Shown: positions 4,886-44,053, numbered from the stretch's first letter. The stretch is 64,000 nt of DNA from an uncultured Anaerolineae bacterium (GCA_964439625.1 CAYTPI010000001.1:80944-144943); one strand, 5' to 3'. The notes: generated from the sequence alone by a model not told the origin. A program made the numbers and translations.

Positions 4886-5012
4886 GAGTGCTGCTGAAGG
4901 AGTCGGGTCCTACGCGGCGTATACCGATGAACCTGGTCAGGTCCGAGAGGAAGCAGCCATAAGACGGACCATACGGGTGCCGTAGGGTTGCCTGGCTCCC
5001 TCAGCAGCACTC
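4886..5012 (+). ncRNA. ffs: Signal recognition particle RNA (small bacterial 4.5S type)
   Basis: Conserved domain-IV core cctGGTCAGGTCCGAGAGGAAGCAGCCataag (E. coli 4.5S has GGUCAGGUCCGGAAGGAAGCAGCC). The terminal helix is closed by perfect pairing of GAGTGCTGCTGA (4886-4897) with TCAGCAGCACTC (5001-5012), followed by a T-run (5013-5020). Confidence 0.9.
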
Positions 5013-18200: not shown

Positions 18201-19671
18201 GGTTGACCACTTCGCGAGCCTCGTCGACCAAAAAGACGGCTGCTTTTTGTGCATGAAATAAATTGACGACAATACGGCACACAGAGTTGGTCATTTGTTC
18301 CAAGTTGAGGCTGGCGCCGACTAACGTTGACACCTCCGCAACAGACTTAAGTTCGACAGCTCGCTGGTTAGCCTCTTCTAGCAGTTGTGTTTTTGCCAGC
18401 GCTTGTGCTATTCGCCTCGAAATCAACTGAATTGCTTCAATATGTTGGTAATTGTACAGGTACCCTGGCTCATGGTTGCGAATACTCAACACGCCAATGA
18501 CTTTGTTTGCAGCCACCAACGGAACAGCCAGCAGACTGTACCATGCGTTTAGTCCCATGTCTGTTGCCCGATCAGGCTGAAAACCCAAACTTCTGGCAGC
18601 ACCAACAGCGTCGCGGTTTAGGATTAACGGCTTCTTACTGCGCAGCACATGCTCGTTGAATCCGTGTGTCGCAGGGCGTTCACTGAGTGCGAGGGCCTGG
18701 CCATCACGGTAGACCAATGGAAATGAGAATGTCTCATTGGCCTCGTCATATATTGCAATCTGAAAGTCTGTTGCTGCCACAATGCGGTCTGTTGCTTGAT
18801 GCGCGGCTTTTGCTGCGCTGATAATCGTTGTGGCTTCTAGTAAATTTTTGTCAAGCGAGGATGTGACATCCAGCAGATGCTGCTGATATGCCTGTCGCCT
18901 TTGCTGGCGGAAGAAAAAAGATACAGCGATTACTATCACCGCCGTCGTAATGATGGTCGGCAGCAGGCTAGGCTGCATCTCGGTGAAGCTCGCAGCAATA
19001 AACAGACCCATCGTACTAAAATTAATCGAATTAGCGACAAATGACGGCCAATTCGAGCGAATATACTGCTCCACATTGCGGACACTCAGCGAGAGCCAGA
19101 AGACATAAAAAACACTGAATACCGCCATGAACACCATTAGGGCAGCAATAATCAGCCCTAGTGAAGTCTGTGCGAGATACATGACAGGGATAAGCCCATG
19201 AATGACATTGGGAAATATTTGGGCGACGAGTACCAGCGTCAAAGGTACGAGAGTGGCATGTGCAGTTACTTCGACGGCTTGTTTAAAGTTATTCTGCCAA
19301 GAAAGGCCGATAAAGCGTCCAATGCCCAACCGAATGGGAACAGCTACTCCTGCGGCAAGTAAGGCTAAGATCATGGCTGCTTGGTAGCCAAGAGAGAAGG
19401 CAATCGCAATTTGCAGCATTGTGTAGCCGCCAACATAAATACCATTTGGTAGCCGCACCACAATGATCAAAGCTGTTGTCAAAGCGATTGCGAAGAAGAC
19501 ATTGCCCGGCTCGGTAACATCAAGCTGGAAAGTTGATACCATCCCCACCGTTAAAACTAGCAGAGTAAGCACAAATAGGACGACAATCAAGTAGTGTTGT
19601 GTCGTCAATGGACGTTCATCGCGCCAATATAAAGTTGACTCGTTAAGCCTCTGCTTCAGCTTGCGTTTCAT
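15223..19671 (-). CDS. Sensor histidine kinase: polytopic N-terminal membrane module, 5 GAF, PAS, HisKA, HATPase_c
   Basis: About 8 TM spans in the first ~255 aa. Five GAF-like blocks, each closing with ...A(V/I)A(V/L/I)(K/Q)NA(H/R)LFE. PAS (INDGIIMLDKSGRVILANSR). H-box VHDLRAPL. LVDNAIRHT, DTGRGV, GLGLTFC. The start overlaps the upstream GTPase gene by 29 nt. Confidence 0.9.
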   Translation of the reverse strand: MKRKLKQRLNESTLYWRDERPLTTQHYLIVVLFVLTLLVLTVGMVSTFQLDVTEPGNVFFAIALTTALIIVVRLPNGIYVGGYTMLQIAIAFSLGYQAAMILALLAAGVAVPIRLGIGRFIGLSWQNNFKQAVEVTAHATLVPLTLVLVAQIFPNVIHGLIPVMYLAQTSLGLIIAALMVFMAVFSVFYVFWLSLSVRNVEQYIRSNWPSFVANSINFSTMGLFIAASFTEMQPSLLPTIITTAVIVIAVSFFFRQQRRQAYQQHLLDVTSSLDKNLLEATTIISAAKAAHQATDRIVAATDFQIAIYDEANETFSFPLVYRDGQALALSERPATHGFNEHVLRSKKPLILNRDAVGAARSLGFQPDRATDMGLNAWYSLLAVPLVAANKVIGVLSIRNHEPGYLYNYQHIEAIQLISRRIAQALAKTQLLEEANQRAVELKSVAEVSTLVGASLNLEQMTNSVCRIVVNLFHAQKAAVFLVDEAREVVNLAGSIGLTKRYQAKSVNIPITSARMTAITSGKPHIIEDVERSESKQIKELDQYIRAVIDVPLNLEGQVIGVLSAYYTHRYRFSDHMIQLAETMASQMAVAVKNAHLFETERQRKRQLEALYAASTRLTTSLSLRSVLDATVTSIIEALDAEVCGALLLDEDDSTLYTAIIVTDEGGITRYIDVPNTDDLLSINQMPHIAHALTVTRLTTIRATDKLSATEEQFLRDHNLQAAMLLPIVVHQFKLGVVFVGSSNLNKRYAESQLKQAQLLLNQAAVALQNARLFESIDVALTSRMNELEALGQIAQRMASQLNIDEVLQEVVVAAAEATNSDICELIMFNERNNTLQVVASLSESSTPGLNKWPAEQGLSGHALTSGHTLIVDDIRNDPRVISVRPGVMAELATPILLNNKKLGVINVESKRVGAFDQSHARFLNHLAEHAAIAIQNAHLFETVQQRANEFNALRDLGVQLLNSGNLRQTLRLIIQEARQRVNAANVYIFLKHEISGGMTTGVNLLETGEVDMQNYFPAAQALTDHFADNEQPIIASNIQDNHLFEDFTSLLEKQNVNGAVCLPLRRGEELVGIFVATFGPETTITEDAIRFLDLLAAQAAVAIGNEQLAEQTRAGRDRLQAILHSINDGIIMLDKSGRVILANSRAEYLLNVHLNNFIGETFAQIFEQMPPTQTDTGVLAINHIRDIEQTARENPNLITRRSYELHKPTFRALQEISSPVTNEDDQVLGRLFVIRDETQQVVLDQYQKEMSEMIVHDLRAPLSGVISSIYFALEEADSEARDIDTIKTALSIALSSSDSLLQLIEAILDINKLEAGEMQLDLELQDIKVVALKMLESLNSRFEQARISVVNHIPDGLPLVDIDQQTIERVFHNLVDNAIRHTPEDGTLFIRVDELDTHLRVLVEDTGRGVEKEMREKIFERFTQNERSQRFRGSKGSGLGLTFCRLAIEAHGGRIWVDEGAQGGAAFHFTLPLSPEQPAPTD

Positions 19672-28472: not shown

Positions 28473-28559
28473 CGGGGAGGACAGGATTCGAACCTGCGGT
28501 ACCCTTGCGGGCACAACTGCTTAGCAGGCAGCCCCAATCGTCCACTCTGGCACCTCCCC
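28473..28559 (-). tRNA. tRNA-Ser (anticodon GCT), class II, CCA not encoded
   Basis: Reverse complement GGGGAGGTGCCAGAGTGGACGATTGGGGCTGCCTGCTAAGCAGTTGTGCCCGCAAGGGTACCGCAGGTTCGAATCCTGTCCTCCCCG. Anticodon loop is CTGCTAA. It has a long variable arm and the T-loop GGTTCGAATCC. Confidence 0.9.
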
Positions 28560-28581: not shown

Positions 28582-28672
<91 letters not shown>

Positions 28673-29305: not shown

Positions 29306-30196
29306 CTAGACAGCAGCCCCACGCTCAGAGAACAGCCGGGCGTTATCAATTGCAATCGCGACTTGATCCGCCATCATTTGGATGGTCTGAATGTCATCCT
29401 CAGTAAAGGCATTGACGCTCGTGCTTTGGACGTCTAACGCACCAATGACGTCACCACGTACACGCAGAGGTAGAGCCATCTCGGCGCGTGTTTTCGGTAG
29501 GTAGGGGTTATCAAAGCGGATTGCTTCTTCACCGACATCTAACGCGATGCGCGGTGCGTTGTTTGCCGTTACCCAGCCCACCATTGATTGGCTGCCAACG
29601 CCGAGCTTATGTCCAATCTCTAGCAACTGCTTACCGCCTTCACCAGTTGCTGCGCGGAGAATAGCCCACTCGCCGGCATTATCGATCAGAAAGATAGCGG
29701 CATAGTAGAAGCCGAAGTGCTCGCGGATCAAATTGACACAGCGTTCGATCAACTCTTGGTAGTCCAAGATTTGTGTTGCTGCTCGAGCAACCTCTGATGA
29801 GGCCAACAGTTGCATGCTGCGCTGCTGCAATTCCTTAAGCAGTCGCATCTCGTCACTGAGATTCTTAATTGAGTAAACAACGCCTGCAACTTTCTTCTCT
29901 TTCATTAAGGGGCCGGCCCGTAGTTCGACCGGGATGTTGCGTCCGCGCTTTGTAAGCAAGTCTCGAACGAAGGTATCCGTCTTTTTCCCTTTTTTGACCG
30001 TTGCGAGAATTTCTTTGATTGTTTCTTCGAATGCATCCGAGGCAAAGCCTGTCATTTTCAGCCCACTAGCATCCTCGCGAGAATATTCCAGTAAGTCAAG
30101 GACATCATCGTTTATCTCTGAAATGTTGCCGTCAAGATCAGTTACGATGACACCTTGGGGAATGCTGTTGATCAATTGGCGAACGTCAAGATCCAC
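29306..30196 (-). CDS. PAS-GAF signalling protein without output domain
   Basis: GTG start 7 nt after GGGAG. PAS (IPQGVIVTDLDGNISEIND) and GAF (FYYAAIFLIDNAGEWAILRAATGEGG...ALPLRVRGDVIGALDVQS...AIAIDNARLF). Confidence 0.85.
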   Translation of the reverse strand: MDLDVRQLINSIPQGVIVTDLDGNISEINDDVLDLLEYSREDASGLKMTGFASDAFEETIKEILATVKKGKKTDTFVRDLLTKRGRNIPVELRAGPLMKEKKVAGVVYSIKNLSDEMRLLKELQQRSMQLLASSEVARAATQILDYQELIERCVNLIREHFGFYYAAIFLIDNAGEWAILRAATGEGGKQLLEIGHKLGVGSQSMVGWVTANNAPRIALDVGEEAIRFDNPYLPKTRAEMALPLRVRGDVIGALDVQSTSVNAFTEDDIQTIQMMADQVAIAIDNARLFSERGAAV

Positions 30197-30547: not shown

Positions 30548-31711
30548 ATGTCTGATATAAAAAGTGATGCATCACATATGATTTTACTCGTCGATGATGA
30601 TCCAGCAATTCTTGAAGGCGTCGCCGACTTGCTGCGTCTGTATAACTATAACGTCATAACGGCAATTGACGGCAGCGATGCACTATCACAAATGCAGCTT
30701 ACTAAGCCAGACATCATCGTCTCTGATATTATGATGCCAGACATGGACGGCTACGAGTTTTTTGAAACGGTACGGGCAAATGCTTCATGGACAACAATTC
30801 CGTTTATCTTCTTAACCGCCCGTGGTCAAGCAAAAGATATTCGTCTAGGTAATATGCTGGGTGCAGATGCTTACTTAACTAAGCCTTTCGATCCGGAAGA
30901 CTTAATTGTGCTGGTAAAATCACGCTTGCAGCGTGTTCATGACATACACGAGGCAACACAGCATGATATCGACCGCATGAAGAATCAGCTAATCACAATC
31001 TTCAGCCATGAACTCCGCACGCCGTTGACATATATCTATGGCTACGTCAACTTATTGCAAGAGCAGCACACCGAACTTGAAGCGAACACTGTTGAGGACA
31101 TGCTGACGGGCGTTCAACGTGGTGCCGAGCGGCTGGTGAACCTCGTTGAGGACCTGATGCTGCTTGTGCGCATCGATAGTGGGATCGTCGAGATGGAAAT
31201 CAATATGCGCCAAGACGCCATAAACCTGCATGAACTGGTACAGCTTATATTGAGTGAATTTAAGCATGAAATTGCTAAACAGCGGCTTGAGGTCGAGATG
31301 GACATTGACCCTGCCATCGAAATCTATGGGATGGAATTACACCTGCGCGATGCGCTAAAGCGCGTGATTGATAATGCACTTAAATTCAGCCATCGTGGCG
31401 AAGGGCTTGTAACAGTGCGTGGGTACGCTCAAGGCGATCAGATCGTGATTGAAGTCATTGACCGTGGGATTGGCATCGCCGCGGGCAAACTTGATCAAAT
31501 CTTCGAACGCTTTAAGCAGCTTGACCGTGACCTTATGGAACAGCAAGGTATCGGGCTTGGCTTGAGTATTGCTGACACGATCATTACGTTGCACCATGGG
31601 CAGCTCTCTATCGAGAGCGAAGTTGGAGTCGGGACGACCTGCCGAATTTCTCTCCCCAATAGTGGCAGTGTTTTTAGTACGAACGGTATGGTAGAAATCA
31701 TCGACGCTTAA
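30548..31711 (+). CDS. Hybrid receiver-histidine kinase (REC-HisKA-HATPase_c)
   Basis: REC (LLVDDDPAILE, DIIVSDIMMPDMDG, LTARG, TKPFD). H-box FSHELRTPL. IDNALKFS, DRGIGI, GIGLGLSIA. Confidence 0.9.
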   Translation: MSDIKSDASHMILLVDDDPAILEGVADLLRLYNYNVITAIDGSDALSQMQLTKPDIIVSDIMMPDMDGYEFFETVRANASWTTIPFIFLTARGQAKDIRLGNMLGADAYLTKPFDPEDLIVLVKSRLQRVHDIHEATQHDIDRMKNQLITIFSHELRTPLTYIYGYVNLLQEQHTELEANTVEDMLTGVQRGAERLVNLVEDLMLLVRIDSGIVEMEINMRQDAINLHELVQLILSEFKHEIAKQRLEVEMDIDPAIEIYGMELHLRDALKRVIDNALKFSHRGEGLVTVRGYAQGDQIVIEVIDRGIGIAAGKLDQIFERFKQLDRDLMEQQGIGLGLSIADTIITLHHGQLSIESEVGVGTTCRISLPNSGSVFSTNGMVEIIDA

Positions 31712-31756: not shown

Positions 31757-32608
31757 TTATCTTCCGTTCAGCGTCAACTGCATTTCAATGCGCCGAAATG
31801 ACTCAACGTAGCCATGTTCAAAATAATGGTCGAGGAACGGGGCATCAGTTGGTACGTTCTCAGCGATTGTATCTAAAGCTGGGAACTGCATATGCAGCAG
31901 CGACAACAGTCGAGCGGCTGGAGCAGTAGCTGCTGTACCCTGTGGGCTCAGCATGACGCGCTTTAGCTGTAATTTACTTTTTAGGTAAGTGACCCAGCCA
32001 TATTCACCGGTGCCATCATCATTGATCTTTAACATCTCGACGCTGCCCGCATTACGCACCGACTCAAGCTGATTCGTCCAGGCGGCACGCCATGGACGCG
32101 TTTTTAGGCAGCTCAATGTGCTTACTTCATCCAGCCATTCGGCACAGGGTTCAACCAATGCAGAGAATGGCTGTGCAGGGCGAGGCGGGCGGCGGAGGAT
32201 TAATAACTCGCGCTGTTCAATAAAGCCTAAACTCTCAAACAGACGGTACGCTGGTTCGTTGCCGGTAATCACCTCCAGGAAGACATACTGAAGACGCCGT
32301 TCGATAGAACGCTCGATCATGTAATTCATCATATGGCGCCCAATGCCATTGCGCCTACTGCCAGGGATGACACCTAATCTCGTAATCCAGGAGCGGTTTT
32401 CCCTAACGCCCAACATACTGAGTCCAAGCATGTTGTGGTTCTCGTCTAGTGCAACAACTGAGTCTTCCAATGAAATATCGTAGGTATCAACGTAGGCTTG
32501 CAGACGCTTTGGCGACATTGGCATTGGTACAATGTAGTCGATGCGTGTCTGATTATATGCGTCTGTTAGCTCTTCAATTGAATACTGCGAGGCCGGTACG
32601 AGGTACAC
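31757..32608 (-). CDS. GNAT-family N-acetyltransferase
   Basis: Motif A: WITRLGVIPGSRRNGIGRHMMNYMIE...AYRLFESLGF. Confidence 0.8.
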   Translation of the reverse strand: MYLVPASQYSIEELTDAYNQTRIDYIVPMPMSPKRLQAYVDTYDISLEDSVVALDENHNMLGLSMLGVRENRSWITRLGVIPGSRRNGIGRHMMNYMIERSIERRLQYVFLEVITGNEPAYRLFESLGFIEQRELLILRRPPRPAQPFSALVEPCAEWLDEVSTLSCLKTRPWRAAWTNQLESVRNAGSVEMLKINDDGTGEYGWVTYLKSKLQLKRVMLSPQGTAATAPAARLLSLLHMQFPALDTIAENVPTDAPFLDHYFEHGYVESFRRIEMQLTLNGR

Positions 32609-32714: not shown

Positions 32715-33146
32715 TCAGTTGGTTATAGGTTTGATATGATCTTTTATCTGATCGTGGAATACGCGCGTATTGATTGGCTTAGAAATGTAGCCTTCACACT
32801 CATATGCATCTATCATTTTCTTTGCAGTTTCAGATGGCCATGCCGTAACGACAATAATCGGAGTATTGGGCAGGGCCTCTGGTTGTTTGAGCCATCCTGC
32901 GACTGTCTGACCGTCAACATCTGGTAGACCTAGGTCTAACAATATCAGATTTGGGTTTTGCGCCAACGCCATTTCCAAGCCAGACTCGCCATCTTCTGCG
33001 TGAAATAATTGATAATTGTGACGTTGTAATACGCGTAGCATCAAACGAGCGTTCTTGGGGTTATCCTCAATAATCAGAATCTTGGCGGCTGTGTTTTCAG
33101 TTGATTGATTGGCACTTGTTTCAGTTTCCACAGTCACACTCCCCAC
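32715..33146 (-). CDS. Stand-alone response-regulator receiver
   Basis: ILIIEDNPKN, NLILLDLGLPDVDG, VVTAW, SKPIN. Confidence 0.9.
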   Translation of the reverse strand: MGSVTVETETSANQSTENTAAKILIIEDNPKNARLMLRVLQRHNYQLFHAEDGESGLEMALAQNPNLILLDLGLPDVDGQTVAGWLKQPEALPNTPIIVVTAWPSETAKKMIDAYECEGYISKPINTRVFHDQIKDHIKPITN

Positions 33147-33241: not shown

Positions 33242-33784
33242 TTATTGCTCCTGCTGGCCTTTTGAACGCTTAACAACTTTGCTCTCGACTTTTGCTTTGG
33301 ATTTTTTGTTTTCGTTTTTTGCTTTCGCGGCAGCTACTTTAGATTTACTCTCATCAGTCGTAGTCTTTTTCTTTGAATCTGTTTCTTCCGCAGGTATGCT
33401 AGCCTTCGTTTGAGCCGCTGGTAAAAACGTCTTCAAGGCTTCTCGAAGTTCATCACGGCTAATGGGCTTCCGCAGATAGCCGTCACAGCCTGCGGCAAGA
33501 AAGCGCTCGCGGTCGCCAACCATCGCGTTCGCCGTCAGTGCCACAATGGGGACTTCCTGCATAGCGGGGTTTTCTTTGAGCCGTTTAGTCACCTCAATGC
33601 CTGTGATATCAGGCAGGTTGATATCCATCAAGATGAGGTCAGGGGCAAGCTCCGGCGCCATTTTGAGTGCTGTTTCGCCGTCCTCAGCTTGGTGAACATC
33701 GTAGCCTCTCTTCTCAAGCTGCAGCATCCGGTTGACGAGTCGGAAGTTCTGGAAATTGTCTTCGACGTACAGGATGGTAGTCAT
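33242..33784 (-). CDS. Response-regulator receiver with Lys-rich disordered C-terminal tail
   Basis: ILYVEDNFQN, DLILMDINLPDITG, ALTANA, RKPIS, then about 55 aa of K/E/S/A-rich tail (KKKTTTDESKSKVAAAKAKNENKKSKAK...). Confidence 0.9.
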   Translation of the reverse strand: MTTILYVEDNFQNFRLVNRMLQLEKRGYDVHQAEDGETALKMAPELAPDLILMDINLPDITGIEVTKRLKENPAMQEVPIVALTANAMVGDRERFLAAGCDGYLRKPISRDELREALKTFLPAAQTKASIPAEETDSKKKTTTDESKSKVAAAKAKNENKKSKAKVESKVVKRSKGQQEQ

Positions 33785-33793
33785 ATAATCTCC

Positions 33794-34252
33794 CTAAATG
33801 ACTGTACTTGGGTTGGTGTTGCCTGTATCGTTTTGTGCAGATGTATCGGGTGTACTTGTGCTGGCTTCTTGCTGGCCTGCTTCGCGGTGACTGCCTTGCT
33901 GAATGAACTGCTCAATTTGCCCGGCGAATGCGCGCGTATCAATCGGCTTGGTAATGTAGCCATCACAACCATATGTCATGGCCCGTCGCTGTGTGGCGGT
34001 GTCAGTGCTGCCAGTCACAGCAACGACGGGGATATCACCTGGGATGCGGTTCAACAGAGCCGCAATGGTGTGACCACCAATATCAGGTAAACCGAGGTCA
34101 AGTAAAACAAGGTCCACGGTTTCCTCACTGGCAATCTTAAGCCCCGCTAGCCCCTCCGACGCATGCTTAACTTCATGCCCATTACGAGACAACACACGCC
34201 TGACGATATTTGCACTGTGTGGGTCATCTTCAATTACTAGTATCTTCGCCAT
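33794..34252 (-). CDS. Stand-alone response-regulator receiver with short Q/S/T-rich tail
   Basis: ILVIEDDPHS, DLVLLDLGLPDIGG, AVTGS, TKPID. Confidence 0.9.
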   Translation of the reverse strand: MAKILVIEDDPHSANIVRRVLSRNGHEVKHASEGLAGLKIASEETVDLVLLDLGLPDIGGHTIAALLNRIPGDIPVVAVTGSTDTATQRRAMTYGCDGYITKPIDTRAFAGQIEQFIQQGSHREAGQQEASTSTPDTSAQNDTGNTNPSTVI

Positions 34253-34263
34253 GTGTTTGCTCC

Positions 34264-36387
34264 TCAGTTGGCCTTGTCGAACATACTCATAATTTCTTTC
34301 TGAAGCATGGTTCGTTCAATGGCCCCCTTTGTCAGGGTTTTATCGACTCGGGTTTCCAGAATTTTGCGCTCTTTGCGTGTTAGGTCTTTTGCCGTCAGTA
34401 AGATGACGGGCGTCTCCTGAGCAATCGAATGTTCTCGCAGGTGTTCGAGTAGCTCAATGCCTGTCATATCAGGCAGCATTAAATCTAAGATGATTAAATC
34501 TGGTGCCATTTGTTCCAAGAACTCAATCGCTTGTTCACCAGTATGCGCTTCGTAGACTTCACACTGCCGCTGATCTTTCAGTGTTCGCTTAAGTAAGCGT
34601 CCGTCTAGTGGGTTGTCTTCAACTAAGAGGAGCTTGAACTGTGATTGCTCAAACTCGCTAGCCGCTGGTGCTTTAGTAGGGATAGTAGTTCCTTCTGGGT
34701 GCTTATTGTTGTCGCTGCTGGGTAGCAGTCGTGGTTCATCACCTAGGGTCGTGACAATATGATTGACAAGATCGTGCGTATTGTAGTTACCCTTGACCCA
34801 TAACGACACGGTTTTGCGCTCTAAGTCATTTTGTTCCGTTTGGCTTAGAGTCTTGCCAGAGACGACAATAACGGGTATTTCAGCGGTGAGTTCATCGGCC
34901 TTGAGGGTATCTATCAAGTCAAAGCCATTGACGTTAGGCATCATTAAATCAACGATGACCAGATCAGGCTGGCGGTATCGCACAAGGTCAAGACCTGTAT
35001 CAGGGTCGTTAGCTTCAAATATGCGATACGACTTATGCCGTTGTAACAAGCGTTTAATTAAGCGGCTGTCTTGCGGTGAGTCATCGATGACAACAATGCT
35101 GGTAATGCGTTCATCGAGGAACTCAAGCGCTGCTCCTAAGCCCTCTTCGGGAAGGACGCCCCATTGATCCGCCAGTTCACTTTTGACGGCAATATCAACA
35201 ACTTGCTGGTCACTGAGAATAAACTTCTCAACAGGCATCGTGTGCCCAGACGCGTTAATGACAACTTTGTGCTCAGGTGCTACCAGCCCTTGTGCGACCA
35301 TCTTGGCAAAACCTGCAAAGGCCACAGCAGTTGCTGGCTCAACAGAAATCCCTTCTAACCGGGCAAGACGTCGCATCCAAGTGAACGCCTCATCATCAGA
35401 GACCGATACCATCGTGCCGCCCATTTGCTTCGTTGCTCGGTACAAATAGGTATAACCAAACCCCGGCGCGCCGGTCGACAAAACTGTAATCGCGGTTCTC
35501 GGTTCTATGGGCTCGGCTTCTTCTTGGTCTTGCTCGAATGCGCGTACCATTGGGGCGCATCCATCAACCTGAATAATGCCAAGCCGTGGCAGGCTGTCTA
35601 CCATGCCAATCTGCTTGAGCTCTGTGAAGCCTTTCCACACACCGATTGGGCCTAAGCCACCGCTTACGGCCTGTATGAACCAATCCGGGGTGTGCCAGTT
35701 AAGCTGTTCAGCAATTTCAAAAGCCATGGTCTTCATGCTTTCTTTGCTCGCAATTGCCTTAGCGCCGCGTTCGTAGTGAATGCCGTGGCGTTTGGCAAAG
35801 CTGGCTGCAACCACCTTGGTCTGATCGTATGTGCCCGTCACTTTGATCACGTCAGCGCCATACAACGAGATTTCCCGCATTTTTTCACCAGGAACCTGAC
35901 TGGTTAGAAATACCCACAGCTTAATTCCGGCACGGGCACAATAGGCAGCATAGGCAGTTGCGGCGTTCCCTGTCGAGGCGATCACGGCATCTTTGACCCC
36001 AGAGGCAACTAAAGCGGATACAGCAAGTGATGCTTGCCTATCTTTGAAGGAACTGGTCGGGCCGCGGCGCTCATCCTTGATGTAAATATGCTTATGGTTT
36101 AAATAGTCGCCAAGACGTGTTGCCTGAAACAGTGGTGTAGCCCCCTCTACCATGGTAACGCGATGCACATCATTGACGGGTAGCAAATGCTTGTAACGCC
36201 AGAGACCATCGGCATTATTCCCGAGGCCATCAGGCCAAAGCTTGCTGACAGCCTCATAGTCGTACCGGGCATCTACCCATGGTGAGCCGCACGATGTGCA
36301 GGCTACCACATCAAGTGTTGCGGGCATCATATGGTCACATGCTAGACATGCGACCTGTTTGAATGTACTGCTGACTGAAGGTGTCAA
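34264..36387 (-). CDS. Threonine-synthase-like PLP enzyme fused to two C-terminal receiver domains
   Basis: N-terminal Cys4 ribbon (CLAC...CTSC). PLP-Lys motif PTSSFKDRQA (Lys codon 36043-36045). ASTGNAATAYAAY and AVSGGLGP, colinear with ThrC. REC1 (VVIDDSPQD, DLVIVDLMMPNVNG, VVSGK) and REC2 (LLVEDNPLD, DLIILDLMLPDMTG, LLTAK). TTG start. Confidence 0.85.
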   Translation of the reverse strand: MTPSVSSTFKQVACLACDHMMPATLDVVACTSCGSPWVDARYDYEAVSKLWPDGLGNNADGLWRYKHLLPVNDVHRVTMVEGATPLFQATRLGDYLNHKHIYIKDERRGPTSSFKDRQASLAVSALVASGVKDAVIASTGNAATAYAAYCARAGIKLWVFLTSQVPGEKMREISLYGADVIKVTGTYDQTKVVAASFAKRHGIHYERGAKAIASKESMKTMAFEIAEQLNWHTPDWFIQAVSGGLGPIGVWKGFTELKQIGMVDSLPRLGIIQVDGCAPMVRAFEQDQEEAEPIEPRTAITVLSTGAPGFGYTYLYRATKQMGGTMVSVSDDEAFTWMRRLARLEGISVEPATAVAFAGFAKMVAQGLVAPEHKVVINASGHTMPVEKFILSDQQVVDIAVKSELADQWGVLPEEGLGAALEFLDERITSIVVIDDSPQDSRLIKRLLQRHKSYRIFEANDPDTGLDLVRYRQPDLVIVDLMMPNVNGFDLIDTLKADELTAEIPVIVVSGKTLSQTEQNDLERKTVSLWVKGNYNTHDLVNHIVTTLGDEPRLLPSSDNNKHPEGTTIPTKAPAASEFEQSQFKLLLVEDNPLDGRLLKRTLKDQRQCEVYEAHTGEQAIEFLEQMAPDLIILDLMLPDMTGIELLEHLREHSIAQETPVILLTAKDLTRKERKILETRVDKTLTKGAIERTMLQKEIMSMFDKAN

Positions 36388-36504: not shown

Positions 36505-36549
36505 TTGAACAAAGAAGCACCATCTTCAGATTGCTGCTGATGGTGCTTC
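36505..36549 (-). terminator. Stem-loop downstream of the 2486-aa kinase gene
   Basis: gaagcaccatc (36514-36524) pairs with gatggtgcttc (36539-36549), an 11-bp stem. On the minus strand it is followed by TTTGTTCAAAAG. Confidence 0.5.
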
Positions 36550-36592
36550 AGTTTGGATACTACTCGTTATTAAGGCAAACTAACCTGCTGAT

Positions 36593-39500
36593 TTAGTCGC
36601 CTGTGAATTCATCGACTTCTTCACCAGAGCGGTGCCCATTACCATTACTGCTGCTTGCGTGGCCGTTTCGGCTAACATTACCACCTATCGAGTCTTCATC
36701 CGGTAGGTCTTCACTTGTGGGTTCTAATGGCAATGACAGTATAAACACACTACCCGTACCTGGTTCACTGCTTTCTAGCCAGACATCGCCACCATGGAGA
36801 CGGGCCAACTGCCGGGTAATTGCCAACCCAAGCCCAGTGCCGCCTGCTTTGCGGGTTGCAGACCCGTCTGCCTGACGGAATTGGTCGAAGATGAAACTGT
36901 GCTGCTCATACGGGATGCCAATACCAGTATCTTGAACTTCGACATGTAACCAGCGATTGTTGACGGTCATCACACCAACCCGGACGTAGCCTTTTTCGGT
37001 GAACTTAATGGCGTTACTGAGCAAGTTCCAAATGACCTGCCGGATGCGAACAGCATCCGCACTGACGACGGGTAGGTCTTCCTCAATTTCGATCCGCAGC
37101 TCAACGCTAGGCTTGTCCCGTAGTTGGACGCGTAACATGTCAACAATCTGTGGCAGAGTGTTGGTCAAGTCAACTTGGCTGCGATTAAGCTCCATGCGGC
37201 CTGCCTCGATCTTCGCGAGATCAAGAACGTCATTGATAATGGCGAGCAAATGGTGCCCGCTAGAGTGAATAGCCTTGATGTCGTCGAGCGCCATCTCATC
37301 GAGTTCTTCTTTCATCTCATCGATCAGCAGTTCGGAGTAGCCGATGATCGAGTTGAGCGGTGTTCTTAACTCATGGCTCATGTTCGCTAGGAACTCAGAC
37401 TTCAACTGGTCGACTTCGCGCAGCTTGTCCATAGTCTTCAACTGCTCTTGATAGAGTTCTGCGTTCGAGATAGCAATGGCTAACTGGCTCGCCAGAATGG
37501 AGAGTGTCCGGATTTCGTCATTGTTGAACTGCTCGGCCCTGTCTTGCTGCACGTCGAGAACACCGACCACATCGTCACCGACTGCCAGTGGAATGGCAGC
37601 CTCTGATATTGTGTCGGGTAATAGTGGGTTCGGTAAGTGGAACGGGTCGGTGCGGACGTCGTTCACAACGACGGGCTCCAGTGTTCTGGCGGAGCGAGCA
37701 ACCAGGCTTCGGCCTGCATCCATCGGAATGCTGTGCTCGCGACGTTTCATTTCGCTGCCTGCATGGCCTAAACCCGCACGTACTGTCAGGACGCCCTGCT
37801 CACGGTTCATCAAGTAGATGTGGCAATAGTAGTAGTCAAAGGCTTGTGCAACCCGGGTGACGGTGTTGTCCAGCAACTCCTCGATATCCAGGGTGGCAGT
37901 TAACTGACGCGCCAACTCGTAAGCTGTTTCTTGCCGGCGTTCAATGCGCCGCTCTTCAGTGATGTCTCTGGAGATACCCAGAATGTAAACAACTTTGCCT
38001 GCGTTATCCATAACGGGTATTTTTCGTGTTTCTAGAACCCGCTGCTCGCCGTTGGCAAACTCAACCAAGTCGTTCGCGTTGTAGACGATCTGTCCTTTCT
38101 CCAAGACTTTTAGATCATCGGCGCGGTAGCCAGGTGTGCCACCAATTTCTCCGGTGATGTAGGCCTCGTCCGACAAGTCCTCGTCGCGCTTGCCAATAAT
38201 TTCCTCTGGTGAGAGGGCAAAGGCCTCGGTAGTCATTTTTTCATTTGCTAACACGAAGCGTAGGTCACGGTCTTTCAAGAAAATCCAGTCAACGGAGGCA
38301 TCGATCACTGAGCGGATTAGGCGCTCTGACTCAGCGGTGTTGACTAAGGCATCGCGGACGCGGTTGAGCAGCAACTGGTTACTAACGGTTATGGATGCCT
38401 GCTCAGCAACTGACCGGTAGAAGCGTTCCGTCTGTTCACTGATTGCACCGGGTTCTGTGCCCGTTAGAGAAATCCAACCGAGCCAGCGGCGGCTGCTGTC
38501 TCGCAACAGCAAGCTCATCATGCTGCGGGCGGTGCTCATCTGCGGAACGGTCTCACGCGTGATGTCATCAATGCGCTGATCTTTGTCAAGATCCGCTGCA
38601 TAGAATAGGCCGTCAACTGCATTGTCTCTTAGCGACAGGAGCAGATCATGGTCGATGCCCTCCGAGGACTGAGTGACCTGAGCCTGCTTATCAGTCATAG
38701 AGTAAGCGGACATATGTTGATATGTGCTAATTGACTGACCGATGGTTATAGGTTCATCAAATAGGTATAGGTCTAGCCGGTCAAGATGAGCAGGTGGCGT
38801 AGTGCTGACAATTGCTTGCAGCAGTTGGTCGAAGGAACCGGCTGCAGCAATGCTGCTAGAAGCCTCATACAGGCTTTCTGTCAGTCTCAGGCTTGCTTCT
38901 GTCTCACTGAACAACTCTGCGTTCGACAGCGCAACAGCAAGCTGGCTGGACACAATCTCTAGCGTGTTGATTTCCGCTTCGTCAAAAGCGAATGGCGTGT
39001 CTTGCTGAATGTCAAGGACACCCAAGACGCGTTTACCAAGCGAGATTGGTATCGCGACTTCTGCTTGCGTTTGCGGGAGCAGCGGGTTCGGTAAATGACC
39101 AGGGTCAGTGGTGACATCATCGACCGCGATGGATTGATTGTCTCGAGCGGCGGCTGCTACAAAGCTTCGGGCGGCATTTAATGGAATGGCGTGCCCACGA
39201 TTTTTGAGTTGCTGGCCTGCTTGGCCTAGACCTTCTGCTAGGAAGAGGACGTTCTCTTCTTCATCTAGAAGGTAGATATGCGCATGGTAGTAGTTGAATG
39301 TATCTGCCAATTGGCTAACCGTAATCGACAGTAGTTCTTGCGGGTCAAGCACAGTGCTCAGACTGCGGGCCAGTTCACGACCAAGCGTCTCACGCTCCGT
39401 CTGGCGGATACGGTCGGTCACGTCATATTGCAGACCGACGAAGTAAGTCAGGTCACCCTCACGGTTGACAATCGGTGAGATGTTCAACTCGTTGTAGAAG

Positions 39501-42500
39501 AGCGTGCCGTCTTTACGGTAGTTTCTCAACAAGACGGTTGTCTTGCGGCCTTCCTCCAGCGCTGACCGTAGTTCGTCAAGGGCTTCTTGGTCGCGATCAT
39601 CGCTCTGAAGGAAACGACAGTTGTTGCCGACAGCCTCGTCAAAGCTGTAGCCGGTGATGGTCGTAAAGGCCTCGTTGACGTAAGTCAGGGGCATGTCTGG
39701 CTGACGGGCATCTACAATTGAGACACCAACCAGACTACTTTCAACCGCTGCTTGCTGCAACTGGAGCTCTTCGATCAGGCGCGTGTTCTCAAGGGCCGAG
39801 CTCAACTGCGTGGTGATAATTTCGAGAAGCTGGATTTCCTCGTTGGTGAAGTAGTCTTTCTGGTCGTGCTGAACGTCAAGCACACCAATAATGCGTCCAC
39901 CGGCATCCATCGGAATAGCTGCCTCTGACTTCGTGCGTGGGAGCAGAGGGTTCGGTAGGTGCCCAGGGTTTTGCCGCACGTCGTTCACAATCACTGGCTC
40001 GCCAGTACGCGCGGCTTCAGCCACAAGACTGCGTTGGGCCCCCAGCGGGATAGTGTGGCGGCGTGCCTTCATCGATGCACCCGCTTCACCGAGGCCTTCG
40101 ACAACAACCAAGGCCTGATCGCCTTCATTAAGCAGATAGATATGCGCATGGTAGAAGCCGAAACCGCGGTCTAGCTGCTCAATGGTGCGTTCTAACAGGC
40201 GCTCTTGGTTGAAGATAGAACTCAATTCTTGCGCCAATTCATAGGCTGTAGTTTGGCGCACCTGCCGCAGTGCGCTTTCGGTCACATCGGAAATACTGGC
40301 GATGATGTTGTCACTATCTTGGACTTGGGAGAAACTGGCATTGAAGTAGCGTTTACCAATTGGCAAGTCGAGCGTGTAGCGCATCGACTGCACCGCACCA
40401 GTTTCACGGGTAACGTCGAGCAGTTCTTCAAACGCTTCACCAGTCTGCCCTGGTAATACTTGAATAGGTGTTTTGCCAATCAGGTTGGCACGCTCCTCTA
40501 CCAGCAGTTCATCTGATGAGGCGTAAACCTGTAAGTGGCGGTTGTCGCAGTCGAACACGGTGAGTATGTTTGGAATGGAACTCACGACGATGTCTAACTC
40601 AGCCAACGCCTGCTGTGCATTTTCGAGCGCCTGCTGCGCTTCAAAGGTTGTTGAAATTTGAGTCCCTAATTGACCATAGAAACGCTGATCAGCACGGGTA
40701 AATATTTGTGGGTCGGGGAAGTTCACTGTGATAAGCCCGAGCCAACGTCCACCAATCGCCAGCGGCAAAAGAACGAGGCCGCGAACGTCAAGGAGCGTGT
40801 AGGTTGCTTTTTGATCTTCAGTCAGTCGTTCGGATGCTTTAATGTCGTCGATCAAGCGGGCCTGTGTTGGGTCTTCCAGCCAGACGTCGGCAAATGGAAT
40901 TTCCGCAATTTCAAATACAGCACCCTGTGGCATTGCGATGCCTTCATCGGTAGCGGCTGAGGCTGAGACGCGCGCCGTTTCCGGTACACCATCAGCATTG
41001 AGATCAAAGGTAAACAACGAAACCGAGGCCGCACCGCGTTCAAAGCTGCGCTCTGCGATGGCTTGCAGCACTTCGCTGCTGGTTGGCGCTTCAATAATGG
41101 TACGCGAGGTTTCAAACAGCAGTTCTGATTCGCTCAATGCCAGCGACGTTTGGCGCAGCAGACGCTGGTTGTCTAACACGTTGGCAAACTGTGGGGCCAA
41201 CAAGTCAAGCATCTGATACTCGTCGTCTTGCAGCTCAACTTTGTCCGACCAGACCAACGTTACTAGGCCAACCCAGCGCCGCCCGAGCGGTACCAGTGGC
41301 ACCAGCGTCACAGCGGTGATGCCTGTCTTGATCAAGGTGTCACGCAGTTCGTCGTTCAAGCGGTCATCTGAGACGATGTCCGGTATGGACTGAATAACGT
41401 TCAAGTTACCGAAAATCAACTCCAAGAGTTGAAAATTATCTAGTTCGTACATCGTACCGATAGGGGCATCATCGTGCACCACATCGGTGTTGTTGGTGCG
41501 GGCCGCCAGTTCAAACATGACTGGGTTGCCAGCCTCATCGTTGATCACAAGGTGAAGTGTCGCCGTGCCGGGGTTCGAATTCAGAATGGGCTCGACGAAG
41601 GTTTCCAGTAATTGCTGTGGATTATCAAGCTCGTTGAGGCGGCGACCAATCTGGTAGAGCGTCTCAACTTGGAATAGGGCTTCTTCTGTCTGGCGAAGCA
41701 GTTGTGCGCCGGTAATGGTGTACGCAATCGAGATAGCAGCGGTTTGCATCAACTCAATTTCGGACTCTTCCCAAAGGCGTTCCTCTTCGGTTTCGTCTAT
41801 ACCGATGACGCCGAACAATGTATTCTCAACCATAATCGGAATGAGCAAGATAGACTGTGCGCCCATTTCATGCATCAGGTTGCGCTCGTGCTTGTGTGGT
41901 TCCGTGGTAACCGAGCTGAGAACCGTTTTGCCCTGCTGAAGTTCGTTGTACCAGTTAGGCATGGCGTCTTCGAGTACCATATTCCGTAGGCTTGGGTTTT
42001 CGCTGTACTTTGTCTTTCTTGGGGATGCCCAATCATAGAGAATTCCATCATTGCCAAGGTCATCATCCAGCGGTGTTATGTGCCGGACAAGGAAGACATG
42101 GCACGCACGAGAGACTTCGCCAAGAATACGAATGGAGTCATTCAACCCATCGATGCCGAGGTTTAACAGGTTGGTAGCAACTCGAGCTACTGCCGCTGAG
42201 AAGCGGTTCTGGCGAGCTAGGTTGTCTAGTGCGTTGCGGGTTTGTTCTTGTGCTTCTTGCAGACTCTGGAAGGTGCGCGCGTTTTGCACCGCCACAGATA
42301 CCTGACCTGCCAATGTGTTCATCACCAAAATGGTTTCTGGTTTGAAGTAATCTACCCGTTCCGATTGCAAGTCAAGAACGCCAAGTACCTCGTCTTCTGC
42401 GAGTAGCGGCAGGGCTAACTCTGATCGTGTCTCGGGGAGCAGGGGGTTCGGTAAGTGTCCTACTTCCTTACTGACATCAGCAATAACGATTGCTTGCTTG

Positions 42501-44053
42501 CCGCGTGCAGCGCGTGCCACTAAGGAGCGCTCGGCCTGAGCAGAAATTGCATGGCCTTGCTGCTTCATGAAGCGGCCTGCTGTTCCTGCACCGGCTTCCA
42601 TCTTGAGCATATCTGTCGATGGATCTAATAGGTAGACATGAGCATGATAGAGACCAAAGCTTTCTTTCGTTAACTCAGCGACTTGAGGCAGCACTTCTTC
42701 CAGTGACAGACTGCGGGATATCTGCTGCGAGACTTCCGCGGCAATCTCTAGATCGCGGGTGCGTTCTGCAACCCGATCTTCGAGCGTGGTAATGGTCTCT
42801 TCAAGCTGTTCTGCCATCGTATTGAAGGCATTGCCCAACTCACCGAACTCGTCTTGGCGGTTGACTTCTACTCGCGTGCCGAGGCCACCCTCACTAGAAA
42901 TTCGCTGCGCACCTTCGCGAAGCTGTTCGAGTGGTTGCGTGAAGGTCAGTGTAAGCTGCCGTGCAACGACCAGCGCGAGGGCAACCACGACACCAAGGGT
43001 TGCCAACAACAGCGTAGTTGAGCGGCGTACGGGTGTTAAAATAAATTCTGTCCGTGCGAGGCCAATCACATGCCAGTTGACGAACGCCAAACTCTCAGAG
43101 TCGCTCAAGGAAATCGGTTCAATGAAGGCGGCTGCTTCGGCCCCATCTTGACTCGCAACAATGTTGAACTGAGCATCAAAAAAGCCCATACCGAGTGCAT
43201 CCGCAGAAAGCTGGTTAGCAATTAACCCAGGGACTGCGCGAAGTTGCTCGTTTGGTTCATAGGGTTGCCCGGCTTGGAATAGAATATCTCCGATGGAATT
43301 GACAAGCAGGTATTCGCCAGCCGGTGAATTAACCAGTTGCACTGTCAAACCCTCGATGTTGTACAGGCTGTGCATGACAGCGACTGTGCCGGAGCGGTCA
43401 ACTTCAATTGGCGTTGCGATTGTGACAACAGCATTGCCTGTGCGTTCATTGGTCCGGACTTCTGGATCGATGTAAAATTGTTCGGCTTCACCCTCAATGG
43501 CTGACTGCCACCAAGCAGTATCATTATAGAGGTAAGGGACATCCCGCTCGGTTGATGCAATTAATGCACCGAACTGGTCTACAATAATCATCTCTTCATG
43601 GAACGGGACGTCGGTGGTGACATCCTGTAATCCCCTTGCGCTGTCGCCTGACAGCACCCCCAGTCGGATCGCAGCCGTATCGTTAGTATTGTTCCAACGG
43701 GCTTCAGCCTCTGCAATGCGCTCGCTGCGAATCGTTTCATCTTCCGGATAGTTTGATAGCCGAGCGACAATATCACGCTGAATAATTTCGCTCGCACTGA
43801 AAATGTTCATGAAATCAACTTGATCTTCAATGGCGGCTGTGATTTCCCCTGCGGCAGCACGTGTGCTTTCTTCAAGGTCGGCGTTGGCTTGCTGCACTGT
43901 GTCCGCCCGCGTGCGGAAGATCGCCAGTAAGGCGATGACAATTAGCGGAATAGTTGCAACAAGGAGGATAGATAGCAGAAGGCGTCTTCCGACGGAGCTT
44001 CTGTTTTGTGGGGCATTTTGTGATTCCGAGGGCATTGAGTCCATGGTTGCCAC
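36593..44053 (-). CDS. Giant sensor histidine kinase (2486 aa): TM, Cache-like sensor, TM, HAMP, ~8 GAF, 3 PAS (one LOV), HisKA, HATPase_c
   Basis: TM1 (LLLSILLVATIPLIVIALLAIF), about 300 aa extracytoplasmic, TM2, HAMP (FTQPLEQL...GELGNAFNTMAEQL). GAF blocks, four of them carrying GHLPNPLLP. H-box MSHELRTPL (His codon ~37373-37375). LLSNAIKFT, DTGIGIP, GTGLGLAI. The ATG at 44044, 6 nt after AAGGTG, is an alternative start. Confidence 0.9.
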   Translation of the reverse strand: MATMDSMPSESQNAPQNRSSVGRRLLLSILLVATIPLIVIALLAIFRTRADTVQQANADLEESTRAAAGEITAAIEDQVDFMNIFSASEIIQRDIVARLSNYPEDETIRSERIAEAEARWNNTNDTAAIRLGVLSGDSARGLQDVTTDVPFHEEMIIVDQFGALIASTERDVPYLYNDTAWWQSAIEGEAEQFYIDPEVRTNERTGNAVVTIATPIEVDRSGTVAVMHSLYNIEGLTVQLVNSPAGEYLLVNSIGDILFQAGQPYEPNEQLRAVPGLIANQLSADALGMGFFDAQFNIVASQDGAEAAAFIEPISLSDSESLAFVNWHVIGLARTEFILTPVRRSTTLLLATLGVVVALALVVARQLTLTFTQPLEQLREGAQRISSEGGLGTRVEVNRQDEFGELGNAFNTMAEQLEETITTLEDRVAERTRDLEIAAEVSQQISRSLSLEEVLPQVAELTKESFGLYHAHVYLLDPSTDMLKMEAGAGTAGRFMKQQGHAISAQAERSLVARAARGKQAIVIADVSKEVGHLPNPLLPETRSELALPLLAEDEVLGVLDLQSERVDYFKPETILVMNTLAGQVSVAVQNARTFQSLQEAQEQTRNALDNLARQNRFSAAVARVATNLLNLGIDGLNDSIRILGEVSRACHVFLVRHITPLDDDLGNDGILYDWASPRKTKYSENPSLRNMVLEDAMPNWYNELQQGKTVLSSVTTEPHKHERNLMHEMGAQSILLIPIMVENTLFGVIGIDETEEERLWEESEIELMQTAAISIAYTITGAQLLRQTEEALFQVETLYQIGRRLNELDNPQQLLETFVEPILNSNPGTATLHLVINDEAGNPVMFELAARTNNTDVVHDDAPIGTMYELDNFQLLELIFGNLNVIQSIPDIVSDDRLNDELRDTLIKTGITAVTLVPLVPLGRRWVGLVTLVWSDKVELQDDEYQMLDLLAPQFANVLDNQRLLRQTSLALSESELLFETSRTIIEAPTSSEVLQAIAERSFERGAASVSLFTFDLNADGVPETARVSASAATDEGIAMPQGAVFEIAEIPFADVWLEDPTQARLIDDIKASERLTEDQKATYTLLDVRGLVLLPLAIGGRWLGLITVNFPDPQIFTRADQRFYGQLGTQISTTFEAQQALENAQQALAELDIVVSSIPNILTVFDCDNRHLQVYASSDELLVEERANLIGKTPIQVLPGQTGEAFEELLDVTRETGAVQSMRYTLDLPIGKRYFNASFSQVQDSDNIIASISDVTESALRQVRQTTAYELAQELSSIFNQERLLERTIEQLDRGFGFYHAHIYLLNEGDQALVVVEGLGEAGASMKARRHTIPLGAQRSLVAEAARTGEPVIVNDVRQNPGHLPNPLLPRTKSEAAIPMDAGGRIIGVLDVQHDQKDYFTNEEIQLLEIITTQLSSALENTRLIEELQLQQAAVESSLVGVSIVDARQPDMPLTYVNEAFTTITGYSFDEAVGNNCRFLQSDDRDQEALDELRSALEEGRKTTVLLRNYRKDGTLFYNELNISPIVNREGDLTYFVGLQYDVTDRIRQTERETLGRELARSLSTVLDPQELLSITVSQLADTFNYYHAHIYLLDEEENVLFLAEGLGQAGQQLKNRGHAIPLNAARSFVAAAARDNQSIAVDDVTTDPGHLPNPLLPQTQAEVAIPISLGKRVLGVLDIQQDTPFAFDEAEINTLEIVSSQLAVALSNAELFSETEASLRLTESLYEASSSIAAAGSFDQLLQAIVSTTPPAHLDRLDLYLFDEPITIGQSISTYQHMSAYSMTDKQAQVTQSSEGIDHDLLLSLRDNAVDGLFYAADLDKDQRIDDITRETVPQMSTARSMMSLLLRDSSRRWLGWISLTGTEPGAISEQTERFYRSVAEQASITVSNQLLLNRVRDALVNTAESERLIRSVIDASVDWIFLKDRDLRFVLANEKMTTEAFALSPEEIIGKRDEDLSDEAYITGEIGGTPGYRADDLKVLEKGQIVYNANDLVEFANGEQRVLETRKIPVMDNAGKVVYILGISRDITEERRIERRQETAYELARQLTATLDIEELLDNTVTRVAQAFDYYYCHIYLMNREQGVLTVRAGLGHAGSEMKRREHSIPMDAGRSLVARSARTLEPVVVNDVRTDPFHLPNPLLPDTISEAAIPLAVGDDVVGVLDVQQDRAEQFNNDEIRTLSILASQLAIAISNAELYQEQLKTMDKLREVDQLKSEFLANMSHELRTPLNSIIGYSELLIDEMKEELDEMALDDIKAIHSSGHHLLAIINDVLDLAKIEAGRMELNRSQVDLTNTLPQIVDMLRVQLRDKPSVELRIEIEEDLPVVSADAVRIRQVIWNLLSNAIKFTEKGYVRVGVMTVNNRWLHVEVQDTGIGIPYEQHSFIFDQFRQADGSATRKAGGTGLGLAITRQLARLHGGDVWLESSEPGTGSVFILSLPLEPTSEDLPDEDSIGGNVSRNGHASSSNGNGHRSGEEVDEFTGD
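39409..39736 (-). other. LOV (light-oxygen-voltage, flavin-binding PAS) domain inside the giant kinase
   Basis: VSIVDARQPDMPLTYVNEAFTTITGYSFDEAVGNNCRFLQSDDRDQEALDELRSALEEGRKTTVLLRNYRKDGTLFYNELNISPIVNREGDLTYFVGLQYDVTDR. The adduct-forming Cys lies in NCRFLQ (codon 39617-39619). The flavin-contact N (RNY), N...N (YNELN) and Q (GLQ) are all present. Confidence 0.8.

Follow-up and report, generated by a model that had tools for sequence, protein, structure and literature searches.

A 64,000-nt stretch of DNA from an uncultured Anaerolineae bacterium (hereafter the window, to which all coordinates refer) encodes on its minus strand a multi-sensor histidine kinase of 2486 residues with a LOV domain in the middle of the chain. 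The most probable reading of this arrangement, to which we give a probability of roughly 0.68, is that the LOV domain is a functional flavin-binding photosensor and acts as one of several inputs of a dimeric, transmembrane, HisKA-type kinase of the Chloroflexota. Sequence and predicted structure could hardly make the LOV assignment itself firmer. Its conservation argues that the domain is functional, and its place in a repeated sensor cassette and the spacing of its linkers fit a coiled-coil mode of signaling.

The LOV domain and its place in the kinase

An earlier note on this DNA, made from the sequence alone, had described a canonical LOV blue-light module at 39409-39736. The minus-strand translation of this segment reproduces exactly the peptide quoted there, and the codon named for the adduct cysteine does encode a cysteine, residue 1479, within the motif GNNCRFLQ (residues 1476-1483). 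The relevant features are as follows:

39359-39793, minus: LOV domain with its flanking helices, residues 1421-1565 (profile, PDB and model matches)
39410-39736, minus: LOV core, residues 1440-1548 (translation)
39617-39619, minus: codon of Cys1479, the predicted flavin C4a adduct cysteine
39428-39430, minus: codon of Gln1542, the Iβ glutamine equivalent to Q513 of AsLOV2 and Q123 of YtvA

In the domain map the LOV domain takes up residues 1436-1550, between the third and fourth GAF domains. Pfam PAS_9, a profile suggested earlier as a check, scores 95.1 bits at this segment against a cutoff of 27, and the NCBIfam models YtvA_fam and BluLightHisKinLov reach 148 bits (residues 1434-1555) and 140 bits (LOV portion); as the match is confined to LOV, neither reaches its cutoff, which applies to whole proteins. 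In a phmmer comparison with all PDB chains, E was below 1e-10 for 129 LOV chains. The top match is the LOV domain of Meiothermus ruber Mrub_1259 (9vf7, E = 7.4e-33), with further matches to Pseudomonas short LOV proteins, YtvA and YF1, phototropin LOV1 and LOV2, aureochrome and the Brucella LOV-HK; identity to solved LOV structures is 43-56%. When the domain is aligned with phototropin LOV2 (AsLOV2) and YtvA, whose reference sequences were checked to be identical to PDB chains 2v1a_A and 2mwg_A, the flavin-contacting and photocycle residues are all in register: C1479 (AsLOV2 C450, YtvA C62), R1480 (AsLOV2 R451), Q1483 (AsLOV2 Q454), R1496 (AsLOV2 R467), N1511 (AsLOV2 N482, YtvA N94), N1521 (AsLOV2 N492, YtvA N104) and Q1542.

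The predicted structure agrees with this picture. An AlphaFold2 model of residues 1420-1570, built on 100 short-LOV homologues, has a mean predicted local distance difference test score (pLDDT) of 90.4 and displays the canonical order of elements, A'α-Aβ-Bβ-Cα-Dα-Eα-Fα-Gβ-Hβ-Iβ-Jα. Cys1479 is the first residue of Eα in both model and alignment, with no displacement from the position proper to the adduct cysteine. All 50 matches listed in a Foldseek search with the model are LOV structures, the best again being 9vf7 (template-modelling score 0.85-0.93, root-mean-square deviation 1.3 Å), and PpSB2-LOV, YF1 and the Brucella LOV-HK also appear among them. The designation as a canonical LOV module therefore holds by sequence, by key residues and by predicted fold.

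The gene occupies 36593-44053 (minus strand, stop codon 36593-36595) as an open reading frame of 2486 residues from a GTG at 44053. This is the length given in the earlier note, and it stands for the GTG frame, but an ATG at 44044 is the likelier start because a Shine-Dalgarno sequence, AAGGTGG, lies 5 nt upstream. It gives 2483 residues, and an identical NCBI protein (P0001) of that length begins three codons after the GTG. Residues are numbered here in the 2486-residue form; those of the shorter form are lower by 3. The domain map, assembled from phmmer maps, hydropathy, internal comparisons and Pfam scans, the latter run both on the full-length protein and on overlapping segments, reads from the N-terminus:

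43916-43984, minus: first transmembrane segment, residues ~24-46 (hydropathy peak)
43022-43915, minus: extracytoplasmic Cache-like domain, residues 47-344 (dCache_1, 36-38 bits, below the cutoff of 45)
42953-43021, minus: second transmembrane segment, residues ~345-367 (hydropathy peak)
42797-42949, minus: HAMP, residues 369-419 (PF00672, 54-58 bits)
42278-42721, minus: GAF1, of the HLPNPLLP type, residues 445-592
41699-42136, minus: GAF2, residues 640-785 (PF01590, 40.7 bits)
40619-41686, minus: two divergent GAF-like 'RRWxGL' modules, mutually paralogous, residues ~790-975 and ~976-1145 (sub-threshold GAF matches)
40268-40606, minus: PAS of the first PAS-to-GAF cassette, residues 1150-1262 (PAS_4, 29 bits; cassette alignment)
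39782-40204, minus: GAF3, residues 1284-1424 (GAF_2, 79 bits for residues 1284-1422)
38918-39346, minus: GAF4, residues 1570-1712 (GAF_2, 66 bits for residues 1570-1710)
38339-38896, minus: third divergent GAF-like module, residues ~1720-1905 (BLASTP against residues 976-1145, E = 2e-7)
37940-38311, minus: PAS, residues 1915-2038 (PAS_4, best stretch residues 1918-2036)
37460-37888, minus: GAF5, residues 2056-2198
37190-37411, minus: HisKA/DHp, residues 2215-2288 (PF00512, 75.7 bits), with the codon of the phospho-acceptor His2227 at 37373-37375
36716-37066, minus: HATPase_c, residues 2330-2446 (PF02518, 105.8 bits)

The HisKA and HATPase_c matches and the transmembrane segments uphold the description of a transmembrane multi-sensor HisKA kinase. 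The H-box around His2227 reads SHELRTPLN, and the N, G1, F and G2 boxes of the ATPase domain are legible as NLLSNAIKF, DTGIGI, FDQFRQ and GGTGLGL. The Cache-like sensor is a less clear case: its topology, with two transmembrane segments and a HAMP after the second, fits the proposal, but the dCache_1 score lies under its cutoff; an orthologue of 2886 residues (P0002, JGI sample 3300022686) carries a precomputed PF02743 (dCache_1) match.

The LOV domain does lie between two GAF domains, as the two GAF_2 matches on either side confirm. GAF1, GAF3, GAF4 and GAF5 are paralogues, 38-42% identical with an invariant HLPNPLLP motif, and are preceded by HAMP, PAS, LOV and PAS, respectively. The three PAS-type cassettes align gap-free from D(V/I)T, the motif that closes Iβ, through the entire next GAF; LOV therefore stands where a PAS would in a repeating unit of [PAS-linker-GAF]. 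Neither ordinary PAS domain of the kinase has the LOV motif. In short LOV histidine kinases such as EL346, LovK and YF1, Jα of LOV is fused directly to DHp, with about 100-120 residues from the adduct cysteine to the phospho-acceptor histidine; here the distance from Cys1479 to His2227, estimated earlier as about 750 residues, measures 748, and four domains intervene.

The three divergent GAF-like modules (38339-38896 and 40619-41686, minus strand) are related, each of ~180 residues, and share a strand motif, RRW(L/V)G(L/W). A Pfam scan of the third of them gave no match. Being at or below the Pfam GAF thresholds, these modules look like a divergent GAF subtype that is poorly described by current models.

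Conservation, signal path and rival explanations

The orthologue P0002 served as the reference for domain identities. Identity between the two proteins is 92% in HisKA, 77% in both HATPase and LOV, 36-70% in the GAF domains, 35-43% in the other PAS domains and 21% in the Cache-like domain. Conservation of the LOV domain is thus exceeded by HisKA alone and equalled by HATPase, which argues for a functional LOV. The number of N-terminal cassettes varies, P0002 having two more than the window kinase. The C-terminal half, GAF-LOV-GAF-GAF-like-PAS-GAF-HisKA-HATPase, keeps its order, with 748 residues from the LOV cysteine to the kinase histidine in the window protein versus 739 in P0002; this constancy of order and spacing argues against a decaying relic.

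A possible physical path for the signal is suggested by an AlphaFold2 model of GAF3-LOV-GAF4 (pLDDT 85.8; predicted template-modelling score 0.51, a value explained by the model being monomeric and multi-domain). One predicted helix, residues 1404-1440, runs from the last helix of GAF3 into A'α of the LOV domain. On the other side a Jα of 20 residues (1546-1565) is predicted, with the N-terminal helix of GAF4 after it.

Linker lengths between fixed motifs were measured across ~270 family proteins; the counts include paralogous cassettes and related proteins and are for that reason not independent events:

PAS D(V/I)T to GAF YHAH: 45 residues (32 cases), 52 (119), 59 (7)
LOV to GAF: 45 residues (6 cases), 52 (2)
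GAF end to H-box histidine: 23 residues (4 cases), 30 (99), 37 (18)
GAF end to LOV cysteine: 56 residues (4 cases), 63 (3)

The window kinase has 56 residues from GAF3 to the LOV cysteine, 45 from the LOV DVT to the YHAH of GAF4 and 30 from GAF5 to the phospho-acceptor histidine. Where LOV directly abuts DHp in the same protein set, cysteine and histidine are 106 or 113 residues apart. Exact seven-residue steps are a known signature of coiled-coil linkers, and the heptad classes, together with the register shared by LOV and PAS, fit the established coiled-coil transmission model for tandem sensors. Light input into a heptad-registered spine is likewise an established model, and it is well supported by the anatomy of the protein. 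Heptad-step linkers have been reported both for LOV kinases and between consecutive sensor modules, and the engineered kinase YHF integrates light and oxygen on one spine (PMC6798134). The proposal in the earlier note that light has to be integrated with several other inputs over a long signaling path is therefore in keeping with the coiled-coil linkers, but as an idea it had already been stated and, in YHF, shown. Beyond this particular protein, the linkers of multi-GAF kinases, quantised in steps of seven residues, form a clean natural data set for the rules of coiled-coil register.

That the window kinase binds flavin, photocycles and dimerises is inferred, as are the direction of its regulation and its receiver partner, and a mechanism can be proposed in these terms. 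Blue light would link Cys1479 covalently to C4a of the flavin, and the resulting change at Gln1542 and in the β-sheet would alter the packing or rotation of A'α, which may be continuous with the last GAF3 helix, and of Jα, which would lead into the first helix of GAF4. The signal would then travel by a dimeric spine of helices, probably a coiled coil, that leads through GAF4, the GAF-like module, PAS and GAF5 to the DHp helix, and there change the ratio of autophosphorylation (at His2227) to phosphatase activity. Light would be combined on this spine with the Cache-like/HAMP input and with the other PAS and GAF modules. Phosphoryl groups would probably be handed to receivers encoded downstream: a threonine-synthase-like (ThrC-like) enzyme dependent on pyridoxal phosphate (PLP), which carries two receiver (REC) domains, and three single receivers.

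Several observations weigh against this scheme. Next to N1521 the domain has Tyr1520, where most LOV domains have Trp; this is its sole notable substitution. The GAF3-LOV-GAF4 model is a monomer with a predicted template-modelling score of 0.51, and its pLDDT drops to 60-66 at the GAF3-LOV junction, which leaves helix continuity there suggestive and not certain, and a short helix break is predicted at LDP between Jα and GAF4. The interdependence of the linker counts has been mentioned. We know of no demonstration that a natural signal is transmitted across four folded domains, as from LOV to DHp here, and in the nearest experimental case, the LOV-PAS-HK of Brucella, a single domain intervenes. 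Finally, a hairpin behind the kinase gene, described below, may separate its transcript from the gene for the ThrC-like receiver protein.

The LOV domain might bind flavin, and perhaps be photoactive in vitro, and yet serve in the cell mainly as a reporter of redox state or oxygen, or as a dimerisation or scaffold module. Caulobacter LovK, which is modulated by the redox state of its flavin, offers a precedent; many relatives come from metagenome-assembled genomes (MAGs) of Anaerolineae from groundwater, sludge and sediment, where light may be scarce, and no photolyase, carotenoid or other light-related genes were found near the kinase. We nevertheless consider such a role unlikely. The full set of photocycle residues is kept, including the adduct cysteine and the Iβ glutamine, although the equivalent positions in the paralogous PAS cassettes have diverged freely, and when orthologues are compared only HisKA is better conserved than LOV, with HATPase equal to it. 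Moreover, the same arrangement is present in Herpetosiphon, a surface-dwelling glider.

A more radical doubt concerns the coupling itself, as the domain could be a leftover of cassette shuffling, photochemically intact or decaying, that is uncoupled from the kinase because a signal does not get across the four domains between them. PAS-GAF cassettes do shuffle freely in this family, as the two additional ones of P0002 illustrate, and just 2 of the 120 closest full-length homologues have a LOV domain. Such a leftover is nonetheless a poor account of the data, and we hold it to be quite improbable: the LOV-to-kinase half is conserved in order and nearly in length, the LOV domain is 77% identical between orthologues, the linkers on both of its sides fit the heptad classes of the family exactly, and long-range LOV placements recur in independent lineages. 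Least credible of all is the view that the match is an ordinary PAS domain, unable to bind flavin, whose likeness to LOV arose by chance or convergence. The PDB matches (E = 7e-33 to solved LOV domains), the register of seven flavin and photocycle residues and the exclusively LOV structural matches effectively exclude it, and the two ordinary PAS domains of the same protein are without the motif.

Relatives, neighbouring genes and likely output

The frequency of the layout was judged by an exhaustive search of representative proteins with the GAF-LOV-GAF segment. A search with LOV alone returned just short LOV proteins, and not the query's own protein, evidently through a bias of its word index toward short sequences, and was not used for this purpose. 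The motif NC[RK]F[LM] occurs in 2 of the 120 closest full-length homologues (P0001 and P0002), so that LOV is an occasional cassette within the family, and the top 150 representatives of the GAF-LOV-GAF search include 16 that bear LOV. Two of these 16, both metagenomic, were excluded from the count as eukaryote-type RGS/RhoGEF poly-LOV proteins without GAF or kinase domains: P0259 (3055 residues) has five LOV-signature domains with RGS and RhoGEF, and P0264 (4197 residues) has seven with RGS. Their high scores are due only to the repetition of LOV domains.

A GAF-LOV(-GAF)...kinase layout is found in ~14 further protein clusters and in several Chloroflexota genomes, with cysteine-to-histidine distances from 106 to 1305 residues; four of the proteins (P0249, P0250, P0262 and P0269) have GAF-LOV-GAF-...-HisKA-HATPase with distances of 567-1305 residues. 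A scan of GTDB species representatives revealed HAMP-GAF-LOV-...-GAF-kinase in Herpetosiphon aurantiacus DSM 785 and four related genomes (827 residues), as well as the same layout in an Anaerolineae MAG (L030). According to the domain maps, the order HAMP...GAF-LOV...GAF-HisKA-HATPase is shared by the window kinase, P0002, loci L008-L013 and the same four proteins, and the LOV domain of the window kinase is 56-77% identical to those of the others. A LOV census of 2014 already lists the layout of the Herpetosiphon protein A9B1I0, with 52 'GAF+LOV' and 35 'LOV+GAF' strings among its bacterial entries. The earlier impression that the placement of LOV is exceptional does not survive these comparisons: such entries have been on record since 2014, and the cysteine-to-histidine distance is 827 residues in the Herpetosiphon kinase (L008) and up to 1305 in others. 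The window kinase is an unusually large example of a catalogued class, not a unique one.

Two related LOV domains, in L030 (1-2994, plus strand) and in P0269 (residues ~551-665), keep the adduct cysteine and have serine in place of the Iβ glutamine (GISND versus GxQxD). They are natural variants without the 'glutamine lever'.

Downstream of the kinase gene the window contains the following genes:

34264-36387, minus: ThrC-like PLP enzyme with two receiver domains, 707 residues, the probable partner
33794-34252, 33242-33784 and 32715-33146, minus: three stand-alone receiver genes
31757-32608, minus: GNAT acetyltransferase
30548-31711, plus: divergently transcribed REC-HisKA-HATPase kinase

Five REC domains are thus encoded on the same strand within 3.9 kb downstream of the kinase, and all keep the acceptor Asp; no DNA-binding output domain was found in these receivers. 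The ThrC-like protein retains Lys115, the PLP lysine, in the motif SFKDR and has a Cys-rich N-terminal segment, and the NCBIfam thrC models fall just under their cutoffs for the 707-residue protein. The gene order downstream of the kinase is identical in a syntenic locus (L001). Fusions of a ThrC-like protein with REC are widespread in Chloroflexota, with at least 120 clusters at 47-81% identity, and in about 33 of 81 related loci, Herpetosiphon and L030 included, the ThrC-like gene is the next one downstream of a multi-GAF kinase. This pairing occurs with LOV-bearing and LOV-less kinases alike, and literature searches on ThrC-receiver fusions brought up nothing relevant. Judged by this genomic association, the fusion protein is a probable phosphorylation target of the kinase.

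A stable hairpin at 36510-36555 (minus strand, -22.3 kcal/mol, z = -4.8), followed by UUUGUU and ~40 nt past the kinase stop, has the appearance of an intrinsic terminator that separates the kinase gene from ThrC-REC, and co-transcription of the two is therefore uncertain. A consensus terminator scan missed this hairpin because of its loop-length rule; folding revealed it.

Elsewhere the window encodes two more multi-GAF histidine kinases without LOV (15223-19671, minus, 1482 residues; 11767-15183, minus, 1138 residues) and a 296-residue PAS-GAF protein (29306-30196, minus), and the genome appears to be rich in the multi-GAF kinase family. An Rfam scan of the window gave three matches above threshold and no others: a bacterial small SRP RNA (4901-5000, plus) and two tRNAs (28473-28559 and 28585-28672, both minus).

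It is tempting, if speculative, to regard the giant kinase and the ThrC-like receiver fusion as a two-component system spread across the Chloroflexota, with an enzymatic and not a transcriptional output. Where LOV is present, blue light would then govern, by phosphorylation, an amino-acid reaction that depends on PLP; the relay from LOV to kinase would be the longest natural one studied so far, and the kinase would act as a multi-input logic device. We think this unlikely to hold as a whole, but the conserved fusion beside the kinases may be the more original lead. Since the idea of tandem-sensor integration has already been formulated and the listing of comparable proteins goes back to 2014, the window gene adds an example and not a concept. 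Should its LOV domain indeed regulate the kinase across four domains, it would offer a natural case in which to study the transmission and merging of signals along extended coiled-coil spines of multi-sensor kinases, with light as an input that can be switched cleanly beside the ligands of the other modules. One comparable protein, moreover, comes from a cultured organism, Herpetosiphon aurantiacus.

Comparison with known systems

The kinase of Herpetosiphon aurantiacus (A9B1I0, YP_001543993.1) belongs to the same phylum and shares with the window kinase HAMP, GAF, a mid-chain LOV, PAS/GAF modules, a final HLPNPLLP GAF and HisKA-HATPase, and it likewise has a ThrC-like gene directly downstream. 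Its LOV domain is 56% identical, and the distance from the LOV cysteine to the H-box histidine is 827 residues against 748. The window kinase is ~600 residues longer, with additional modules of GAF and GAF-like type and, in the periplasm, a Cache-like domain. A GAF follows its LOV directly, whereas our maps of the Herpetosiphon protein show no HLPNPLLP GAF at that place and one PAS; the census gives four PAS domains after LOV there. Literature searches found no experimental characterisation of either kinase.

Among solved structures, the LOV domain of Meiothermus ruber Mrub_1259 (9vf7 and 9vf8, labelled 'histidine kinase') is ~55% identical in the core, and its structural likeness to the window LOV includes both flanking helices. 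It differs in that an isolated domain alone was solved, and literature searches on 9VF7 and on Meiothermus LOV found no publication. The LOV-HK of Brucella abortus (LOV-PAS-HK; 6ph2, 6ph3, 6ph4 and 6pps) is a natural system in which the signal crosses a PAS domain by way of helical linkers, and it matches the window LOV by structure and by sequence (E = 2e-24). It is, however, a cytoplasmic protein of ~490 residues with one intervening domain and without GAF, HAMP or Cache.

YF1 and YHF, in which the YtvA LOV is joined to FixL (4gcz), together with YtvA, PpSB1 and PpSB2, represent the same LOV subtype, with A'α and Jα as coiled-coil helices and DIT or DVT at the end of Iβ. The function of YF1 and YHF depends on linker length in heptad steps, and YHF integrates two tandem sensors on one coiled-coil spine. 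In YF1 the LOV domain joins DHp directly and in YHF through one PAS, whereas four domains lie between them in the window kinase, where over 1400 residues of other sensors also come before LOV. The cyanobacterial proteins Slr0359, All2875 and Alr3170 resemble the window kinase in combining LOV with GAF and other sensors in long signaling proteins, and their isolated LOV domains bind flavin mononucleotide and photocycle (PMC8640849). They are much shorter, come from a different phylum and have GGDEF/EAL domains, with cyclic di-GMP metabolism and not a histidine kinase as output.

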